Of a stretch of 64,000 nt of DNA, positions 1 to 41,216 are shown piece after piece. The translations under genes and the position numbers were made by a program. Source of the stretch: an uncultured Acidobacteriaceae bacterium (GTDB lineage Bacteria; Acidobacteriota; Terriglobia; Terriglobales; Acidobacteriaceae); assembly GCA_963757515.1 (NCBI GenBank), contig CAVWRV010000005.1, forward strand, positions 39,870-103,869, written 5' to 3'. How positions within the stretch are numbered: the first letter of the stretch is position 1; each line of letters begins with the position of its first letter. Below the pieces are notes generated by a model, which saw only the letters and a list, made by a program, of their open reading frames with translations, had not been told where the DNA came from and made no database searches.

Positions 1-163
1 TCACCTTCAAAAATAGGGCTGGGACTGGCCTCTAAGCCCTTGGCGGGAGCCCAGGCGGGGGACCGCGGAATCGTCAACTGGATCTCAGGCCAGGTCACAA
101 GGCAAGCCGTCTTGAGGGCACGACTTCGCAAGTTACCGAAAATCCGACTTTGCTGGCGCTTCG

Positions 164-1024
164 TCAGAAGCCGTGGGATGTGAGAAAGTTGATGACGATC
201 GAAGCGAAAAGATCGGGCTTTTCAAGGTACAAGAGATGTCCTGTACTGGGCACGACAACCCGAGCAGCTCCGGGGATCAACATGACCAGAGCCCCTGAAA
301 CCGCCTGATTATCAGCAATGTCTGCTGAACCCGTGAGAATCAGCGTGGGGACTCGTATATCGCGCACATATGGAAAGACAGGCTTTTCCGGGAGAGGCAT
401 ATCGTCGTGGTTGTGGTCTTGTGGAAAAGCGTTGAGCAGCTTCCGGAGGTGCTCGCGGGCAGCGTCATTTCCAGGTGCGATGAAGTAGACATTTTTGGCC
501 CTCACTTCCACAGGATCCTTAGCTTCTTGAAACTCCATTTGCGCCATGACGAAATGCTCGGAGTAAGGGAAACCGTCTGCCTCCGGGCCAACAAGTACAA
601 GATCGCCAATTTGTTCTGGGTATCGAAGGGCAACACGTAAGGCGATATTCCCGCCGTGAGAACTTCCGACCAGTGCAGCCTGCGCTATCTTGCGATCTCG
701 GATAATCGCTGCAACATCGTCAGCTTCGTAGTACGGCTTCTTAGTAGCTAGGGAGTGGCCGTACCCACGGCGATCGTACCGTATCACGTGGAATTGTTTG
801 CAGAGGGAGGGCCATACATCATCCCACACGGCTGAATTTACCACCCCATCATGAAGGAGAATCACAGCCTTCGAACCTTTACCGCATTCTTCGTAGTACA
901 AGCGAGATCCTTCTACTTCGACAAATGAACCAGGTGGATTCGCGGACACAGTTGATTGCGCGTAAAGAACTCCGACTCCGATCAGAGTGGAGAACACTAC
1001 AAGCGGCAAGCCGAGAATTTTCAT
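164..1024 (-). CDS. secreted alpha/beta-fold hydrolase
   Basis: 286-aa ORF with N-terminal signal peptide (MKILGLPLVVFSTLIGVGVLYAQ). G-x-S-x-G nucleophile elbow (GSSHGG). Overall layout matches alpha/beta hydrolases. Confidence 0.85.
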   Translation of the reverse strand: MKILGLPLVVFSTLIGVGVLYAQSTVSANPPGSFVEVEGSRLYYEECGKGSKAVILLHDGVVNSAVWDDVWPSLCKQFHVIRYDRRGYGHSLATKKPYYEADDVAAIIRDRKIAQAALVGSSHGGNIALRVALRYPEQIGDLVLVGPEADGFPYSEHFVMAQMEFQEAKDPVEVRAKNVYFIAPGNDAAREHLRKLLNAFPQDHNHDDMPLPEKPVFPYVRDIRVPTLILTGSADIADNQAVSGALVMLIPGAARVVVPSTGHLLYLEKPDLFASIVINFLTSHGF

Positions 1025-1192
1025 AAAGACAGAGTATTCCCAAAATCAATGGCTGCCCGTGAAACGGAATTTTGAGTAACTTCGAACTCTTCCCGGCCGG
1101 AACCACGGGCAATTTACCGATAACGTGACTTTTCTGGCAGCTTCGCGAGTACCGTTTAATCTCAGACCCCAAGTTTTCACTTCGTCTCCTGT

Positions 1193-3856
1193 TCAAGGTC
1201 GATTTGAATGTTCGCCGTGCATGACCATCATAGGGTCCAAGCGTGAGCTTCGATACGCAGGAATTGAGCTGGTAAGTAGTACCATTACGGCGGATATGAG
1301 TGGCCCAGTCAACCATACCCACAGCGGTCGAGCGCCGGTCACTCCGGTGTCTCCTTCCAGACTGTTCAAGAGCCCGAAAGCTATTGACGTACCTGCGAGG
1401 CTGCCCACGAAGGTAAGTCGTAAGCCTGTAGCTAGGACGTTAAGAAAAATCTTCAGGCGCGGGGCACCCAGAGCGATGAGAAGGCCCAGTTCGCGCCTAC
1501 GTTGATACTCAGCAAGATTCTGACTGCTGAATAGACCAAGAATGGTGAGTACGGTGCCGACGAAGGCCAGTGCACTGGCGATCAACTGCACGATTCGCAA
1601 AAGTGCAAGGGCAGACCGAGTGAGTTGGGCACCGAGGGTATCTACAGTCGGCGGGGCTAAATCGCGGCGTGGCACGGCCTCGACTCTATGTCGCAATTCA
1701 GCCAGCATTCGGCCATTCCAATTCGGGGCATTCATGATCAATGTCATGCGCGGGCAGCAATCTTGCTTCATCGGAAAGTACACGGTAGGTTGTGTGGGCC
1801 GCCGGAACGTCCCCAACTCCGGAGATCCAACCACGCCGATGATTTCAGTTCGCACACCACGATCGTCGATGATTTCAGTTCCTAGCGGTTTCTCCCCGAA
1901 GTAAAGGTCAGCGGCTTCTTGGTTAATCACGCCTACCCGATACTGATCGGGCGTCTCAGGAAACCTACGTCCAGCAATCAGAGACAGGTCAAAAGCCGAG
2001 AAATAGTTCGACGAGACGATGTTAACGTCTAGCGGTATACGTAGCATGGGCGAGGCGACAGGCGCACGAAAATGTGCATTCTCGATGCGCGCGGTCGCAT
2101 CGGGGCGACCTACGTTATCGTAGTAGATTGTGGGACGTTGACTCTTCGATGCCACCGTCGCCTTTCTCCTGACTACCCCTATGATCTCGACTGGTGTGCC
2201 AACTGGATCTTGAATGACCCTACCGACTGTGTCCTGACCGAAAAGCTCTGCGGCCGCCTCCTCATTCACGACTCCAACATGGGCCATCTGATCTCCGAAG
2301 GAGAAGAGCCGTCCCGCAACTGGATTGTTGTCCAAGACGTTGAGAGCGTCGGGCGTAAGCCACTCAATATCAATCTTTATTTTGCGGAGTTGTGTCGCAG
2401 GCGGCTGGAGTTTGAAGAATCGCCAACCTGGTTGATTGCCAGGGAGTCGAGCGGCCCACGCAAGTGGAAGGAGACCATCCACCGACTTGACCTGTTGCTC
2501 TACTTCCTTGAAATCTGCCGGTCGAGTCAGTGCCTCTTCAGTTAAGAGAATTAAGCCTCCTCGTCCATCCCGAGCACCGGATTGGAGGGCCGATCGTAGG
2601 CTTTGCTGAAGGAAAGCCACAGAGATGAAAACCAGACAGCACAGCGTAATTTGCCCAATGATTATTCCCGCCCAAAGCTTCCTGTATGCTCTTGATGGCG
2701 TCCCCGTTTCGGATCGAAGAATCTCCCATGGGCGATCCGTTACCGTCACGGCGAGCGGCATCATTCCAAAGAGGACGGTGGTAGCTACACATAGCAACGA
2801 GCCCGTGAAAATAGTTGCCAAGTGTGGCGCAAACACAAAGCGTTCTGCGTCCTCCCGAAATAGAAAGATTGGGACAATATGTGCTGTCCACGCGGCCAGA
2901 AGTGTCCCGAAGGCTCCGCCAGCAAAAGAAATGACGACGCTATCTGACAAAAGCTCGCCTGCCAACTCTCTGCGGGAAGCGCCGAGCGCGACGCGAAGAG
3001 ATGTTTCATGGGAACGTCGCGAAGCTCTCGCCGTCAGCAAGGAACCGATGTTGATGCAAGCGATCACAAACACAGCGGCGGCGGCAAAAGTGACTAGGAC
3101 CCTTACACGCGACAATACGTAGGCTGTCCTGGGAGTCATATCACGGAAGGCTACTATGACTATTCCACCGGTTTTACCGAGACTCTTCTGGGCGGCGGCC
3201 TGCGCCTGACTGATTGAGACATTCGCTTGAAGACGCGCAACGACCCACAAATTCCTGTGCTGTGGCTCGGGACCCTGCGGCGATCGATCTGGCGAGCGTA
3301 TCCAAACATCGACAGGGCGATCGCGATAAAGACCTTCCAGACCACTTGGCGCAATCCCGACTATCGAATAAGTCACGTTATCGACACGAACGTGATCACG
3401 ATGGCTGACTAGCCTTCCACCAAACTCACGTTGCCACATGCGATCACTGATTACTGCCCCATTTCCTATCCGCAGGTTAAGTGCTTCTGCAAGGCTCGGG
3501 GCAACGCTGGCAGTGGTTACCACCTCAGTGTGATCGACGATTAAAGCTTCGCTTGGGGTAATGCGAGCAGCGTCAACCCAAGCGAAAGTATCGTGAAGTT
3601 TGCGTAGCCGTTCATAATCGCTCTGAGAAAATGGCCCTGCCTCGTGTAGAGCGTTCTGGCTGTATATGGAAACGATTCTGTCATCCAGGCCTAACGCAGA
3701 AGTGGGGTGAGTCAGTCCTTCGACGAACCCGTAAACAGCAGCATTACTTCCTACTCCAAACGCAATCGTGAGTATGAGAGCCAGCGACAGCCCCGGAGTT
3801 CGAGCGAACGTTTTCGCGGACCGGAGAAGCTTTAGAGCGGCTCGGGAAAAGGCCAT
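1193..3856 (-). CDS. ABC-transporter permease, MacB/FtsX-like duplicated permease (ADOP family)
   Basis: 887-aa intact ORF. N-terminal TM helix after a basic stretch, then two large periplasmic domains each followed by an FtsX-type 4-TM bundle. Typical of Acidobacterial duplicated orphan permeases. Confidence 0.85.
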   Translation of the reverse strand: MAFSRAALKLLRSAKTFARTPGLSLALILTIAFGVGSNAAVYGFVEGLTHPTSALGLDDRIVSIYSQNALHEAGPFSQSDYERLRKLHDTFAWVDAARITPSEALIVDHTEVVTTASVAPSLAEALNLRIGNGAVISDRMWQREFGGRLVSHRDHVRVDNVTYSIVGIAPSGLEGLYRDRPVDVWIRSPDRSPQGPEPQHRNLWVVARLQANVSISQAQAAAQKSLGKTGGIVIVAFRDMTPRTAYVLSRVRVLVTFAAAAVFVIACINIGSLLTARASRRSHETSLRVALGASRRELAGELLSDSVVISFAGGAFGTLLAAWTAHIVPIFLFREDAERFVFAPHLATIFTGSLLCVATTVLFGMMPLAVTVTDRPWEILRSETGTPSRAYRKLWAGIIIGQITLCCLVFISVAFLQQSLRSALQSGARDGRGGLILLTEEALTRPADFKEVEQQVKSVDGLLPLAWAARLPGNQPGWRFFKLQPPATQLRKIKIDIEWLTPDALNVLDNNPVAGRLFSFGDQMAHVGVVNEEAAAELFGQDTVGRVIQDPVGTPVEIIGVVRRKATVASKSQRPTIYYDNVGRPDATARIENAHFRAPVASPMLRIPLDVNIVSSNYFSAFDLSLIAGRRFPETPDQYRVGVINQEAADLYFGEKPLGTEIIDDRGVRTEIIGVVGSPELGTFRRPTQPTVYFPMKQDCCPRMTLIMNAPNWNGRMLAELRHRVEAVPRRDLAPPTVDTLGAQLTRSALALLRIVQLIASALAFVGTVLTILGLFSSQNLAEYQRRRELGLLIALGAPRLKIFLNVLATGLRLTFVGSLAGTSIAFGLLNSLEGDTGVTGARPLWVWLTGPLISAVMVLLTSSIPAYRSSRLDPMMVMHGEHSNRP

Positions 3857-4730
3857 TCACTCTAACTAGCACGTAGGGGACCACAAATTGGCCACCCAGT
3901 CCACTGAGCTAGAGCGGCGCGGAACACGACAAGCCGTCCAGTTTCGAGGGGCAGTGACCATATTTGGACAACTCGGTAAACTGTCGGAGCAACCAGCCAC
4001 CATTGCTTATTGGTTGTTCCTTGAAAACGTTGGGACACCTTCAGACCGGCGTTTGCTGAAGGAACCTCTGAAACGGGGTTTCAGGTGAATTGCCTGGCCC
4101 AGTGCTCCGGCTGGAGGGGAACTTACCGGAAACGAAACTTTTCAGGCAGCTCGCCAAACCTCATCCTTCGGAAGGTAGAATTAGCATCCCCGGGGGAGTG
4201 TGGTGTGAAGCATATAGTCTTTGGCGGAATTGCAGGATACGCAGGATTGATGGTCTCTTTGGTACTAGTCGTTTTTTTTGCGAGCCGAAATGCAGGGCGG
4301 ATCGGGTGGCGGCACCAATCTTCAGGCGACATTGAAAGCGGAACGCGGCTACTACGGAGACTTTCGGCTAGAATTGATAACTTTTCATTTGACGAACCAC
4401 TCGAACCGCGTTCTGAGCACGGCGGAGAGTTCATGGCAGTTGGTGATCGATGGAGAGCCATTACGTGACCGCGGTGGCCAACTTTGGACGGGCCCTCGAC
4501 CGGCAGAGGGCTATGGTTCATTGCCTCCGGGTAGAGATTTTCAATTCGGTAAAGCGCTCCCGTTGAAGGAATACTTTCCCGAACATCGCCAATACGAAGT
4601 TTTCAGGAGAGCGGCTGGCTTTAAGAGCAACACTGTAGTTGTTAATGGGGGCACAGCACCTTAGTTGTTATGGCTGGTTTGTAAAACGGGGTTTTCGGTA
4701 CTTGCCCACCCCGACCGATCGCCTGGGAGT

Positions 4731-5867
4731 TTACCGATACCCGAGCAACCCCTTCTCCAAAGCTGCAGCTTCCGCGTCGGTATCAGTAAACGGGAGCTGT
4801 AGTGCCAGCTTCATCCGCTTCATCACCTTGTCGTCGACCTTCTCAATCTTGTACTCCGCAATGATTGCGGTAAGGATCATCATGTAGAACTCTCCGGCGA
4901 GCTGGAAGTGGCTACCAGCGAGAAGCTCGAACGATGATGCCTTCAAGGTGAAGCCGCTTACACCGGCTGAATGCGAATACCAACTCAGTTGCGGGTAACG
5001 CACCTCATAGATTTCTTCATACGGCATCTTCAACAGAGCGGCCCGCTGTTTCAGGTTCAACCCAGACCAGTGCTCTACCTTCTTCACACCTGGCCAGAGC
5101 TTCGCCTGCTCAGCCGCTACACGGCTTTCGTTGTTCTTGATGAAGTCCTGATGCACGGTCACGTCCGTTTTCGACGTGGGGTTGGCGGCCTTGTACGCCA
5201 CAATCTTCCGCGCTGCACGAATCTTCTCCACGTCAGTGAATGCGCCCACTTTTTCGATGGCATCAGAAACTACGTCTATGAGCTTCATGTCGATAGCCAG
5301 CTCAAACAATGAGCGCGTCACCATAGCGATTGCTTGAAAGTCGCGTACTGTGCGGAGGTTCAACAGGCTTTCCACGTTCATCCTGACTCGCTGATAGATC
5401 GTGGAGACGAGGGTGTCGCGGTTCGTCTTCAACACGATGGTGGACACGACCGGCCCCACGCTCTCTTTATCGAAGACGTTGAGCCCTTTCAGAGAGGTGT
5501 AGTACCGCTCCGTTGCCGTCATCACATCCGGGCCGATCTTCAGTTGCAGCTTACGAAACACACGCATGGCGTCATGCGAGGTGAACTGTCCACGCGGCAT
5601 GCCGGTCACATGCGCGAACGCCTGTTTGATGGGGAACTGCACACCATCCACTTCGACATAAAGCTCACGAATGGATTCCGGCTCTACGTCCTGCAAGCGG
5701 GAGCGAACGTCAGCAGCACCCAGGGAGAACTCGTTTCCGGCTACTGTAAAGGTCATGTTTTTTTCCATCACTATCGCATCACCACCTAATAATATACCAT
5801 CTTTAAGAAAACCTACTATAAAACTGACTTTCGTTCTGTTTACGTCAATCGACTCAAAATGAACCAT
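4731..5867 (-). CDS. hypothetical protein (orphan, low-GC), no recognisable domain
   Basis: 378-aa uninterrupted ORF in a clearly lower-GC stretch (AT-rich 5' end at 5760-5867). Protein-like composition. No motif I can assign. One weak R-x5-H (RGQFTSH). Confidence 0.6.
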   Translation of the reverse strand: MVHFESIDVNRTKVSFIVGFLKDGILLGGDAIVMEKNMTFTVAGNEFSLGAADVRSRLQDVEPESIRELYVEVDGVQFPIKQAFAHVTGMPRGQFTSHDAMRVFRKLQLKIGPDVMTATERYYTSLKGLNVFDKESVGPVVSTIVLKTNRDTLVSTIYQRVRMNVESLLNLRTVRDFQAIAMVTRSLFELAIDMKLIDVVSDAIEKVGAFTDVEKIRAARKIVAYKAANPTSKTDVTVHQDFIKNNESRVAAEQAKLWPGVKKVEHWSGLNLKQRAALLKMPYEEIYEVRYPQLSWYSHSAGVSGFTLKASSFELLAGSHFQLAGEFYMMILTAIIAEYKIEKVDDKVMKRMKLALQLPFTDTDAEAAALEKGLLGYR

Positions 5868-6207
5868 TTATCGGCACGGCAAGCGTACGGGAGACAGTCG
5901 CTAAATCGTATTTTTAAGCCAACGTTTCCTTTTTATCCGTGCTCGCTCTCCTGCATGGGTTGGGAGCAGGCAATCACGGGTGCGGCGGAGGATTACCCCC
6001 TGGACTATTTATTGTGGAAACCTCGGCCCCAATCTTTCCGGTCAAAGCTAGTGACCAAACGACGGTGCCCTTTGAGTCCCTGCGCCGGTATATTCGACTC
6101 ATCCGCGAAGAAGAGGAAATTAAACAAGCACCCAGGAGACTTGGCAGGATCTGGACCGAACCCATATCAGGGGAATACCCAAACGTCAGGGAATCTCGGC
6201 TCTGAAG

Positions 6208-6663
6208 ATGGTTGCCTCTAGGAGAGAGATGGACAGGGAAGAAGTAGCCGAAATCTACGAATCATACTTTCAATTGCAGGACCTACGTAGCTTCGAGGAG
6301 AGGCTATCGCTCCCTTTCGTGCTGGGCAGCGTGGCTCTCGATCCCGCTAACGCCTCGAAACTTGCTGCCGAATTGAATCGTCGCGGCTTGGACGCCGGCT
6401 TGGACGGCCCCTTGTTGCAGGAACGGGTCGCAAAACGGGTAAGCAACCTCCAAAAACTTAAAACAGTTGATGCTCCCGCTCCGAAAACGACGGCAAAGGC
6501 AAGGAACAGGCAAACCGGGCGCGCACAGAATCCATTCCACGATTTCGTTACCAATGAGATTCGGAACTTGGGCGACAAGATAAAGATCGTTCCTTCCAGC
6601 ATCGAAAAGTCACGGTGTGCCTTGAAAGCACTACTCACAACCCGCGGAAATGCGGCGACATGA
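6208..6663 (+). CDS. hypothetical small protein (possibly 3' part of a frameshifted gene with ORF 5939..6205)
   Basis: 151-aa ORF with charged, helical-looking sequence. Its start lies 2 nt after the TGA of the protein-like ORF 5939..6205, which is in another frame. Confidence 0.3.
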   Translation: MVASRREMDREEVAEIYESYFQLQDLRSFEERLSLPFVLGSVALDPANASKLAAELNRRGLDAGLDGPLLQERVAKRVSNLQKLKTVDAPAPKTTAKARNRQTGRAQNPFHDFVTNEIRNLGDKIKIVPSSIEKSRCALKALLTTRGNAAT

Positions 6664-7408
6664 TACCTTTTTCCTACATCTTCTGCGTGCGCACTCCTGG
6701 GCCAAATTCGAAACTGAGCCGCATGTACGAGGCCCGCAACACACGTCTAAGCGTGTACGCCAAGCAACGTATCCCTGCCGCCCTGATGACAAGCAACAGA
6801 GCACTACCCTGGTTACCAAAGAAATCTTCTAACCCTCTCGACGAAGCCCAAAAACCGTACTACTGTGAGAGTAGCCACCCCCATCAGCGCCGTCTTACTT
6901 GACGGTCCTGCCTGGCTTTGCACCGGCCCACTCTGCCCCTGCATCCGCCGCCAACAGCCGGGAAAGCATCAGCGCCTGCCGGCATGATGACGGGTGTAGC
7001 AAACGCGAATGTGACATCGAAAGCGACGGATTCACGCCTGTCGGCAGCGTTTCTGTGTCCCGTGGGGGGAGTCTGCGGAGAGCACAAATCACCGTGCCGC
7101 AACCAGGGTACGCTCAGTGCGTCCTCTTGATTAAGCAGTTTTGACAACCTGGAAACCACCATCGGAGGCCGGTGCGGCGCCGGACTACACGGGCGCACAG
7201 ACGAGCAGGCGGGACGTTTGCCAATACGCAGTGTGGGCAGAGAGATCGTCCCGCTTGCCACCGGACTGACTAGGGGAAAGTCGGACCAGCCGCCTGCGGC
7301 AAGGCAACGTTCTGCCGTCCAAGTTTTGGAGTCGAGCGTTCCCCGGTCGGCATATGATCGCCAAAACATCGGTACGGAGCGGCAAGCCCCCACCTCAGAA
7401 GGGGACTT

Positions 7409-7435
7409 ATAGCGCTTATAGCGCTTTTAGCGCAC
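7409..7435. repeat. tandem 9-mer array TATAGCGCT-TATAGCGCT-TTTAGCGCA followed by T-run
   Basis: Read directly: three 9-bp units containing palindromic AGCGCT. Followed by CTTTTCTTTTTT. Related array at 8742-8791. Confidence 0.8.
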
Positions 7436-7560
7436 TTTTCTTTTTTGCCGGGGCTAAAACGTTTGCGTGAGAACCCCGGTTCAGAATGGAGTCTCAGCGG
7501 GACAGGGCGTAGGGTATTACCACGTTCGTAAGAGGGCATCTGTTCCTTCATTTACGAAGG

Positions 7561-7674
7561 TGCTCAAATCAATTAGTTTGAGCATCTTGATCATCTTCGT
7601 TAAACAAAGGACTTAGCCGCCAACCTTGATCACCTTCAGGTAGCATTTGAGCACCTTCGTTGAACAAAGGACTT
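7561..7674. promoter_or_regulatory. palindrome plus three iteron-like direct repeats upstream of, and overlapping, ORF 7647
   Basis: TGCTCAAAtcaattagTTTGAGCA perfect 8-bp-stem palindrome at 7561-7584. CTTGATCAYCTTC-type repeats at 7586, 7625 and 7648. ~34-bp imperfect direct repeat (gagcatcttgatcatcttcgttaaacaaaggactt / tagcatttgagcaccttcgttgaacaaaggactt). Confidence 0.4.
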
Positions 7675-8744
7675 TCCAGCTCCGGGGACATGGGGACAAA
7701 CAGGGCGACCTGATACCTATTGCGGCATTTCCTCGCGGAGCCAACAAAATTAGGGAGCTAGCAAGGCACGGAGAAGCTCGGGGAACGTCTGAGGCAAGAC
7801 TGACTTTGGAGCTTGCTATCGAGCAGGGTCGGGGCGGATTCGCCATGATCTCCGAGTTCCGGGCAATGCTGGAGCGCTTCGATTCGGAACACGACCGCTC
7901 CCTTCTGGCGCGGATATTACTTCTTCGCTTGCACGTCGAAGTCGGAGACCGGCCAGATCGATATTGCAGGCTCTACAGCAAGATGATCAAAAACGCCCAA
8001 TTATGGGATGCGCATTCTGAGGACAACGTCACTCCCAACACTTTAAAGCGAACATTGTCTATCACTGTTAGTCGTCTAGCTGGCTCTCGGGAGCAACAAT
8101 TCAAATGTCCAGCTTCCGCGGAGTTTGTTTCCTGATTCGCCGCCGGCACCAATTATGGAGGACGACATCCGGTCGCCCGCGAACTCCGCCGCGCCCGCGA
8201 CTGGGCTACCGCGACTCCCGAAATCCTTTTTAGCCGTAATGCCGCTGCCCGCGAGCTCTGGCAGGACCGCTATCCCGCCTTGAGCCAGCTCCGGCCAGGC
8301 CTGCGGGGCGCCGCGACCAGCCGCGCCGAGGCCCATGTCCTGCGTCTCAGCGCCATCTACGCCGCCCTGGACTCCACCTCCGTCATCGGCCTGCCCCATC
8401 TCCAGGCTGCCCTTGCCGTATGGGATTACTGCTACGCCAGCGCCGCCCTCCTCTTCGGCATGTCTACCGGGGACCCGATCGCCGACCGTATCCGCGAAGC
8501 CATCGAGGCCTCCGGCGACGGACTGTCGAAGTATCAGATCAGGCGTCTCTTTCACGGCCACGTCGAGGGCAACCTTATCGACGCTGCCCTCGAAAAACTC
8601 GTGGCCCTGGGCGGCGCAATCCACGCTCGAAGTGAGCCCACCGCAGGTCGACCCTCTACCCGCTGGTCGGTCATCGCAGAGGACGAACACGAAGAAAATG
8701 AGGAATTGGTAGCGGAGGACGAGGCACCGGCAGAAGATCAGTAG
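7647..8744 (+). pseudogene. ORF interrupted by a single in-frame TGA (8133-8135); 5' part low-GC, 3' part high-GC with strong GC3 bias
   Basis: ORFs 7647..8135 and 8280..8744 are in the same frame. Reading continues through the TGA (…AEFVS*FAAGTNYGG…RELWQDRYPALSQLRPG…). Only a TTG start is available after the stop. The 3' part ends …EDEHEENEELVAEDEAPAEDQ. No family assignable. Confidence 0.35.
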
Positions 8745-8791
8745 GGCTTTTAGCGCTTATAGCGCTTATAGCGCTTTTAGCGCATTTTTTT
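8742..8791. repeat. tandem 9-mer array TAGGGCTTT-(TAGCGCTTA)x2-TAGCGCTTT-TAGCGCA followed by T7
   Basis: Read directly. The first TAG is the stop codon of ORF 8280..8744. Same unit as the array at 7409-7435. Confidence 0.8.
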
Positions 8792-8835
8792 AGACGCTCC
8801 GAGAAGCCGGAGCGTCTCCCTTTGCGGTATTTTGG
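8792..8835 (+). terminator. candidate intrinsic terminator
   Basis: Perfect 10-bp stem AGACGCTCCG-agaagc-CGGAGCGTCT (8792-8817) followed by ccctttgcggtatttt. Confidence 0.45.
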
Positions 8836-40721: not shown

Positions 40722-41216
40722 TGCAGTGAAGGGTACGGGCTTTACAGGCTGCGGAAAAACCCAATGTTTTTGAAGGGTACGACCTTTAGGTCGTACGTAA
40801 ACTATTGCAAACAGGTGCGGCTTTAGCCGCTGAGGGAACAACTCTCGCCCTCCAGGACTTTTTCCGCAGCCTGTTCAGCCCGTACATATAAAGGAGGCGA
40901 AAACGATGGGCTTTAGAGTCTGCGTGAGAGCTCTGCACTGAGTCTCGAAGGGGCGGCTGAACTTGGGGCTAAAATTTCAGCCGTCCCTGGCGGGACTAAT
41001 CCAGATTCGTGCCTGCTACCCAGGACTATCGTCCTGGGTTACTTTCAGCCCGTCCCTTCGGGACTCGGTGCAGAGCTCTCACGCAGCTCCTTAGCCCCTG
41101 AGGCAAGCTTTTCGTCTGCGATATGCTGAAAAGCATGCCTCAGCGGCTAAAGCCGATTTCGTTCAAAGCAGTTACGTACGACCTGAAGGCCGTACCCTTT
41201 TTAGCCCCTGAGGGAA
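40722..41216. repeat. R2-family composite palindromic element (copy 2, expanded)
   Basis: Shares the first ~150 bp with 20444-20600. Carries extra nested palindromes (ctgcgtgagagctctgcac…gtgcagagctctcacgcag, ccaggactatcgtcctgg, gtcccttcgggac) and a second cctcagcggctaaagccg copy. Confidence 0.75.

Follow-up and report, generated by a model that had tools for sequence, protein, structure and literature searches.

Candidate iteron arrays of a decayed DUF3987-family rep gene and their dispersed copies in Acidobacteriaceae genomes

Two 9-bp arrays and a truncated gene

We analysed a 64-kb stretch of DNA from an uncultured Acidobacteriaceae bacterium (NCBI GenBank assembly GCA_963757515.1, contig CAVWRV010000005.1, positions 39,870 to 103,869), hereafter called the window, in which two short tandem arrays of a 9-bp unit lie about 1.3 kb apart. 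The second array adjoins the 3' end of a truncated gene of the DUF3987 family of replication helicases/initiators, here called rep. Other sequences that hold arrays or homologues are designated by L and a number. Array 1 begins with GGGG-A (7401–7405), continues with two copies of CTTATAGCG (7406–7414 and 7415–7423) and one of CTTTTAGCG (7424–7432), and ends in CAC plus the T-rich run TTTTCTTTTTT (7433–7446). Array 2 is headed by the stop codon TAG (8742–8744) and GG, after which CTTTTAGCG, CTTATAGCG, CTTATAGCG and CTTTTAGCG start at 8747, 8756, 8765 and 8774, respectively, and CA with seven T residues closes the array (8783–8791). Tandem Repeats Finder assigned a period of 9 to both, with 3.1 copies in array 1 and 4.7 in array 2, and positions 7406–7439 and 8756–8789 are 97% identical over 34 nt. 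These data bear out the preliminary description of this DNA, which had reported two 9-bp arrays in direct orientation, the second starting at the stop codon of the open reading frame (ORF) that they enclose. The 9-mer TAGCGCTTW occurs five times in the window, each time within one of the arrays, against an expectation of 0.42, and 0 of 100 shuffled sequences contained five copies. Relaxed unit searches across the window revealed no further array.

The enclosed ORF proved to be the 3' third of the rep gene, with the C-terminal winged-helix domain retained and the 5' part gone. Read from 8139, the frame encodes the C-terminal ~190 residues of a protein that reaches ~470–520 aa in full-length relatives. 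Homology to these relatives begins at ~8157–8169, an in-frame TGA (8133–8135) lies just upstream, and the filler upstream of the remnant has a GC content of 52% compared with 63%. We therefore conclude that the 5' two-thirds of the gene, including the Walker-A region, have been replaced. The filler contains a 162-aa orphan ORF, for which no relative was found among 1.84 billion representatives except a 96-aa self-match starting at 7845. No intact rep copy is present within the window.

Array position and residue–base covariation in the gene family

To relate the arrays to the gene, 46 metagenome loci encoding relatives of the remnant were collected and 30 distinct 3' flanks were scored. In nearly all 46 loci, the stop codon is followed after 0–6 nt by two or three tandem 9-bp units, CAC and a T-run. 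A period-9 score of at least 12 out of 18 was reached by 27 of the 30 flanks, compared with 9 of 292 other ORFs. Tandem units (two to four) are retained after the stop codon down to 31% protein identity, and the type of unit differs by lineage (TTTTAGCGC, TTATCGCGC, TTTTGACGC, TTTTATCGC, TTATGGCGC, TTTTTGCGC, TTATCTCGC, TTCGCATAC, TGCGCTTTA and TTTCTTCG); its general form is CTTWT-N6-N7-CG. One metagenome locus recovered from 10 samples (L116–L125) encodes an identical 483-aa protein with an array of either three or four units, which shows slippage-type copy-number change within a population. The gene stands alone at this locus, between a transglycosylase gene and an encapsulin–DyP operon.

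More than 3000 homologues of the remnant were found, mostly full-length and almost all labelled 'hypothetical'. Searches of close homologues against Pfam, NCBIfam, PDB sequences and PADLOC gave no usable match, and the DUF3987 profile (PF13148) matched neither the window fragment nor its close full-length relatives. The distant homologues L108 and L110 matched PF13148 with 50.5 and 47.8 bits (cut-off 27), and several close homologues bear a precomputed PF13148 assignment. Because the fragment itself is unmatched, the DUF3987 membership of the window protein rests on transitive homology. Relatives at 43–48% identity combine DnaB_N with DUF3987; their genes adjoin that of a large serine recombinase, accompanied by an HTH_17 protein, or that of a VRR-NUC protein. 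Where distant relatives carry the serine recombinase, the array lies inside the element. PHROG matches fell into primase and helicase families, and a plasmid search returned only weak DnaB_N matches. From the DnaB_N/DUF3987 context and the PHROG matches we therefore regard the family as replication helicases/initiators of integrative elements and phages.

The C-terminal domain of the remnant is a predicted, confidently modelled winged helix. In the AlphaFold2 model of the remnant, residues 113–178 (predicted local distance difference test, pLDDT, 87–96) form a helix, a short strand, two helices and a beta-hairpin, and the top Foldseek matches in the PDB were all winged-helix DNA-binding domains (MarR, ArsR, PadR, TFE and DNA-bound ORC1), with modest E values of 0.015–0.1. 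The full-length model was poor (mean pLDDT 50) except at the C terminus. One helix of the domain carries the motif LSK-X-QI-Z-RLF, which we tabulated against the downstream unit in about 33 sequences. Tyrosine at X was paired with A at N6 in 12 of 12 cases (AGCGC and ATCGC units), asparagine or aspartate with C in 7 of 8, histidine with G in 3 of 4, and serine or methionine with T (TGCGC and TTCGC types). Arginine at Z was paired with G at N7 (AGCGC, CGCGC, GGCGC, and TGCGC of L100), and valine, serine, alanine or threonine with T or A (ATCGC, CTCGC, GACGC and TTCGC). The arginine/G rule holds again for the L100/L103 pair, which belongs to a distant subfamily.

The X/Z classes were not monophyletic in a tree based on 115 residues that lie outside the helix. 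The histidine/G pairing appeared at three separate places (L083, L077 and L087); L077 was placed within a serine/T clade, the other members of which have mixed units. The closest cross-type pair, L073 (serine; TGCGC) and L078 (tyrosine; ATCGC), is 88.5% identical at the DNA level. In our judgement the pairings are chemically sensible, with histidine or arginine facing G and asparagine or aspartate facing C. Covariation with repeated independent switches suggests, as a correlation, cognate specificity between initiator and iteron.

A viral relative shows a more elaborate arrangement. The exact pattern TTAGTTCGC, repeated three times, matched two viral contigs, L068 and L069. In L068 (IMGVR_UViG_3300044815_000078, array region 4104–4493), the ORF beside the array has 31% identity to the family (E = 3e-39), and its stop codon TAG falls inside the first TAGTTCGC unit. 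The twelve TAGTTCGC units form a symmetric layout: three spaced and then three tandem copies, an interval of ~155 bp whose core is AT-rich, and, inverted, three tandem and three spaced copies. The acidobacterial GTTCGC arrays share this 9-mer. The region is a candidate phage replication origin. The second match, L069, has no rep homologue, and its array is probably due to chance or unrelated; no AGCGC array was found in viral contigs. The array of L109 runs in the opposite orientation to its gene, as would suit a site on double-stranded DNA.

Intact acidobacterial copies form discrete units of ~1.8 kb, in which homology between sites extends from about −290 to between +31 and +55 relative to the gene, flanked by unrelated host genes. 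About 70 bp upstream of the start codon, four of the loci (L034, at 5201–5219, L071, L116 and L041) contain the sequence AGTCAC-[9-mer]-GTGAC. This 9-mer is identical to the array unit at L034 and L071 (TTTTAGCGC) and at L116 (TTTTCGCGC); a second subfamily has CTTTTNCCGG at this site, differing from its array unit. The arrangement resembles the autoregulatory operators of iteron plasmids and suggests a putative operator of the same kind.

Dispersed arrays, block A and other features of the window

We scanned one genome per species of bacteria and archaea with the three-unit pattern AGCGCTTWTAGCGCTTWTAGCGC. The pattern was found at 61 loci, at most 12 in any one genome, and all 18 genomes concerned were those of uncultured Acidobacteriaceae. 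Given the stated collection size, we estimate that chance alone would yield ~0.07 matches. All copies share one layout: a G-rich run, CTTWT-AGCG units, CAC and a T tract of ~10 nt. In the acidobacterial copies the AT content is 61% over 20 nt at the T tract and returns to 38% beyond it. Sister arrays with identical layout and other units (TTAGTTCGC, TTATCTCGC, TTATCACGC, TTATGGCGC and others) occur at these loci, often several in succession and in one shared orientation. Many arrays are orphans in host intergenic regions, some of them between convergent genes (L015), and the neighbouring genes show all four combinations of orientation (14, 14, 13 and 8 loci). Within 3.5 kb of the arrays, no integrase, transposase or other recurrent protein was found at the 61 loci; only the rep gene and spurious ORFs over a conserved non-coding block (block A, Table 1) recurred.

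Composite units of ~950 bp, in which arrays of differing types are clustered downstream of block A, recur within and between genomes. We also observed a higher-order arrangement at L057 (4626–4742 in array-oriented coordinates), where three GTTCGC-type arrays lie in a 41-bp tandem repeat made up of the array and ACATTTCTACAG. Two possible origins of orphan arrays were considered and rejected. Array 1 is not recognizable as the tail of a second decayed rep gene, as its upstream 75–90 nt gave z scores of −0.3 and 0.2 against rep 3' ends. Nor are the GTTCGC-type orphan arrays tails of the L096/L103 rep subfamily, to which their upstream sequences have no significant similarity.

Block A is 70–78% identical in ~25 loci of other Acidobacteriaceae genomes, where ~70–1000 nt separate it from a downstream AGCGC array, an interval often occupied by arrays with different units. 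It is always upstream of iteron arrays and co-oriented with them. No consistent ORF, no tRNA and no Rfam match were found in it. In its predicted fold a stem (GGTTACCAAAG / CTTTTGACAACC) closes the block over a long range, and several hairpins are present; pairs are formed in 95.6% of pair cells, and compensatory changes were seen at 6 pairs versus 1.6 in shuffles. Slid controls, however, gave 4–5 compensatory pairs. Several pairs are dominated by G-U, which fits the plus strand, yet the reverse strand folds at least equally well. Block A could be a new RNA or a cis element. A known RNA gene as an integration target beside array 1 was also considered and rejected, since no tRNA, tmRNA or Rfam match was found there.

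The coordinates of all features are collected in Table 1. The left arm of the hairpin after array 2 (AGACGCT..CGA.AA) is found after the T-run in several relatives and the right arm only in the window; no T-run follows the hairpin on either strand. The repeat module between array 1 and the remnant comprises a 16-nt inverted repeat (ACGAAGGTGCTCAAAT / ATTTGAGCACCTTCGT, arms 75 nt apart) and two copies of a 28-nt direct repeat (TTGATCATCTTCGTTAAACAAAGGACTT, spacing 60 bp). Related modules (GATCAAATCAATTGCTTGATCATCTTG) lie between arrays in L008, L014, L018, L023, L024, L033, L038, L039 and L056.

Table 1 Features around the two arrays (positions in the window)
Feature	Position	Strand	Basis or remark
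Block A, conserved ~370-nt non-coding block	6790–7165 (to ~7290 in some loci)	+	241 nt upstream of array 1
Array 1, candidate orphan iteron module	7401–7446	+	Tandem Repeats Finder, 9-mer count, alignment; layout as at 61 loci
Inverted/direct repeat module	7554–7674		16-nt perfect inverted repeat and 28-nt direct repeat
Orphan ORF, 162 aa	7647–8135	+	In lower-GC filler; shares the frame of the remnant, one TGA (8133–8135) between
rep remnant, last ~190 codons of a ~480-aa DUF3987-family replication helicase/initiator gene	8157–8744	+	Homology to full-length relatives
Predicted winged-helix domain of the remnant	8475–8672	+	Residues 113–178 of the 8139–8741 translation; AlphaFold2 pLDDT 87–96, Foldseek
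Helix LSK-Y-QI-R-RLF	8523–8552	+	Covariation of Y with unit base 6 (A in the window) and of R with unit base 7 (G)
Array 2, candidate iteron module attached to the rep remnant	8742–8791	+	Four full 9-bp units
Perfect 10-bp hairpin AGACGCTCCG-AGAAGC-CGGAGCGTCT	8792–8817		Directly after the T-run of array 2

Positions 1–7000 of the window have a GC content of 51–55%, versus 58–64% further right, and hold a DUF5677 gene (4731–5867, minus strand) and an unannotated 151-aa ORF (6208–6663); this region and the relics may belong to one larger island. The sole Rfam match in the window is an Acido-Lenti-1 RNA (RF01687) at 41019–41065 (38.6 bits, gathering score 37), consistent with an acidobacterial origin of the DNA. 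A comparison with other strains or an empty site through the proteins flanking the locus found no exact matches on record.

Interpretation of the arrays and comparison with known systems

We read the arrays as iterons of a rep-ori type module that persist in the window as relics, and assign this reading a probability of roughly 0.6. The tandem 9-bp units would be bound by the C-terminal winged-helix domain of the DUF3987-family helicase/initiator, whose LSK-X-QI-Z-RLF helix probably reads unit bases 6 and 7. The gene ends where the array begins, and as a pair they would make up a module of the rep-ori type, like that of staphylococcal pathogenicity islands (SaPIs). That the arrays are cognate sites for the winged-helix domain we consider probable; that they act, or once acted, as a replication origin has somewhat less than an even chance, and we infer both the binding itself and the origin activity. 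Because the rep gene has lost its ATPase part, array 2 would be the cis site of a dead gene, and array 1 an orphan copy beside block A. An intact paralogue of equal specificity elsewhere in the genome could still bind either array in trans. Most probably, the arrays are the sites recognized by the replication helicase of a mobile element, now decayed, of a kind widespread among soil Acidobacteriaceae. The proposal of protein-binding iterons, one of three made in the preliminary description, thus gains support from the conserved site after the stop codon of the family, the C-terminal winged helix and the residue–base covariation.

Several observations weigh against this reading. Most orphan arrays, array 1 included, have no significant rep remnant upstream; local alignment to rep 3' ends detected one at only 8 of ~55 orphan arrays. 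The acidobacterial arrays are one-sided, consisting of direct repeats and a T tract of ~10 nt, with no opposed sets or long AT-rich region. Lone 1.8-kb units between host genes, with no integrase or recombinase, are odd for a replicon. The covariation has exceptions (L035, L041, L081, and Z in the TGCGC group), and linkage and shared ancestry may account for part of it, since the coding sequence of the helix lies ~200 bp away from the array. It is the second helix of the modelled domain that covaries, whereas the canonical recognition helix is the third. Finally, the homologues in cultured actinophages with DUF3987 have no arrays; the array feature therefore belongs to a subfamily, and the idea that arrays are general to all DUF3987 proteins was rejected.

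The winged-helix sites could alternatively serve as operators or a dispersed regulon rather than as an origin, in which case the protein would represent a DNA-binding ATPase that has been domesticated or is autoregulated. A single unit in the operator-like inverted repeat upstream of the start codon, the lone acidobacterial genes amid host genes, the one-sided arrays with only a short T tract and the many orphans in host intergenic regions all suit this explanation, as do the more than 3000 mostly full-length homologues, which suggest selection on the protein. It is nevertheless unlikely, because relatives lie within replication modules, the layout of L068 is origin-like, a position after the stop codon is unusual for an operator and pseudogenised copies are frequent. 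The arrays might instead be modules of a lineage-specific interspersed mosaic repeat (BIME-, BOX- or MITE-like) that spreads by itself and lies beside rep by chance, in keeping with their number per genome, their mosaic clusters with other short modules, the copies squeezed between convergent genes and the variation in unit number between strains. We hold this to be very improbable, given that the position at the stop codon is conserved to 31–43% protein identity and across phyla, and that the residue–base covariation argues for a functional coupling to the protein.

The preliminary description had also suggested bidirectional terminator-like structures. As intrinsic terminators or 3'-end modules of the rep mRNA or of a block A RNA, the arrays would form a hairpin from palindromic units followed by a U-run. 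This reading is favoured by a consensus scan, which flagged GCGCTTTTAGCGC plus the T-run at both arrays as a minimal terminator, by T-runs that always share the strand of the gene or block preceding them, and by the location of arrays directly after stop codons. The AGCGCT cores can indeed pair with each other, as had been proposed, but array 1 folds no better than shuffled sequences on either strand (z = −1.2 and −0.3). An excess of stability appears at array 2 (z = −4.2/−5.2, only within 8735–8830) and is due to the separate 10-bp hairpin behind it. The stem would have only 5 bp and exist in palindromic unit types only, whereas non-palindromic sisters (CTCGC, GTTCGC, GACGC and ATCGC) keep the layout without it; two variant-unit sister arrays likewise show no excess folding (z = 0.6 and 0.04). 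Changes of unit type are not compensatory for pairing, yet follow the protein residues. With host genes in all four orientations at random, the inverted array of L109 and the opposed sets of L068, and no stable GC-rich hairpin with a U-run whose pairing is kept in homologues, termination is not supported as the general function, and we judge it improbable.

The third proposal of the preliminary description was that of attL/attR-like boundaries. Direct repeats 97% identical over 34 nt and 1.3 kb apart agree with recombination sites or terminal repeats that bound an inserted 1.3-kb element. The end of homology between 1.8-kb rep units just after the array, and array clusters that could reflect repeated insertion at one spot, also agree with this. 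The enclosed segment, however, consists of a gene fragment and unrelated filler and does not recur elsewhere, the two arrays go with different neighbours (array 2 with the truncated gene, array 1 with a separate block upstream), and in elements that have a recombinase the array is internal. Equivalent segments elsewhere are bounded by arrays of unlike unit types, which is incompatible with att cores. As no integrase or transposase lies near any of the 61 loci, and no discrete, recurrent unit with a recombinase gene is bounded by identical core repeats, this origin is hardly credible.

An extension of the iteron reading, which we consider rather doubtful, is that the 1.8-kb unit of rep gene and array behaves as a selfish replicon of Acidobacteriaceae that has no integrase. 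Orphan arrays, often with block A, would then be non-coding satellites or in-situ origins or operators driven in trans by a resident Rep, and a two-residue/two-base code (X to N6, Z to N7) would yield orthogonal pairs by single substitutions and array homogenisation. What is unusual about the system is the strict 9-bp tandem units running from the stop codon, the apparent two-residue/two-base code, and orphan arrays as an interspersed repeat family. If the iteron reading is true, a cis site and a likely reading helix would be defined for a very large unannotated family of soil proteins, and the pair of winged helix and iteron would follow a readable residue-to-base rule of use in predicting or designing orthogonal replication modules. 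Replicons and similar genetic tools are scarce for Acidobacteriaceae. Iteron arrays would also be seen to persist after the loss of their gene and to turn into a dispersed family of repeats in these genomes, and the arrays of the window would be relics rather than the borders of a cargo. A literature search on DUF3987 proteins with iterons and on acidobacterial repeats gave nothing specific.

Iteron plasmids (RepA of pPS10, RepE of F and pi of R6K) have direct-repeat iterons and an inverted-repeat operator at the rep promoter; their iterons measure 17–22 bp and lie upstream of rep, and their initiators are winged-helix proteins, not helicases. The arrays described here share with them the direct repeats for a putative winged-helix initiator and a related sequence in an inverted repeat upstream of rep. 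They differ in that the units are 9 bp long and lie downstream of a helicase-family rep gene, and no autonomous plasmid form was seen. The alpha protein of phage P4 is a primase-helicase whose C-terminal domain binds short repeated octamers (ori/crr type I iterons), and P4 is an integrative, satellite-like element. In features only, the present family resembles it as a helicase with a C-terminal domain for short repeats and as a satellite-like integrative element; unlike the arrays, the P4 repeats do not lie at the stop codon, and alpha has a primase domain. E. coli BIME/REP and pneumococcal BOX elements consist of palindromes or RNA-structured repeats and have no link to the 3' end of any particular gene. 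Short modules, many intergenic copies, mosaic clusters and variable unit numbers are common to these elements and our arrays, whereas the module described here is coupled to, and covaries with, a replication protein gene.

Among the systems compared are the SaPIs, in which the ori directly follows rep, an AT-rich region is flanked by iterons to which the C-terminal winged-helix domain of Rep binds, Rep is a self-loading helicase/initiator, and iteron–Rep specificity differs between elements (PMC9371898). The acidobacterial system shares the helicase/initiator with a predicted C-terminal winged helix, short iterons right after the rep ORF and an apparent element-dependent specificity; the initiator gene adjoins the repeats in 27 of 30 relatives, the window copy being truncated. 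The differences are that the units are strictly tandem, 9 bp long and present in 2–4 copies (5–6 bp in SaPIs), that they are one-sided with a T tract of ~10 nt where SaPIs have two opposed sets around an AT-rich region, and that the helicase belongs to the DUF3987 family, with no primase or integrase nearby and many orphan arrays. An AT-rich region between opposed iteron sets, absent from the window and from the acidobacterial copies, is present in the viral relative L068, whose twelve-unit layout mirrors the arrangement of the SaPI ori.

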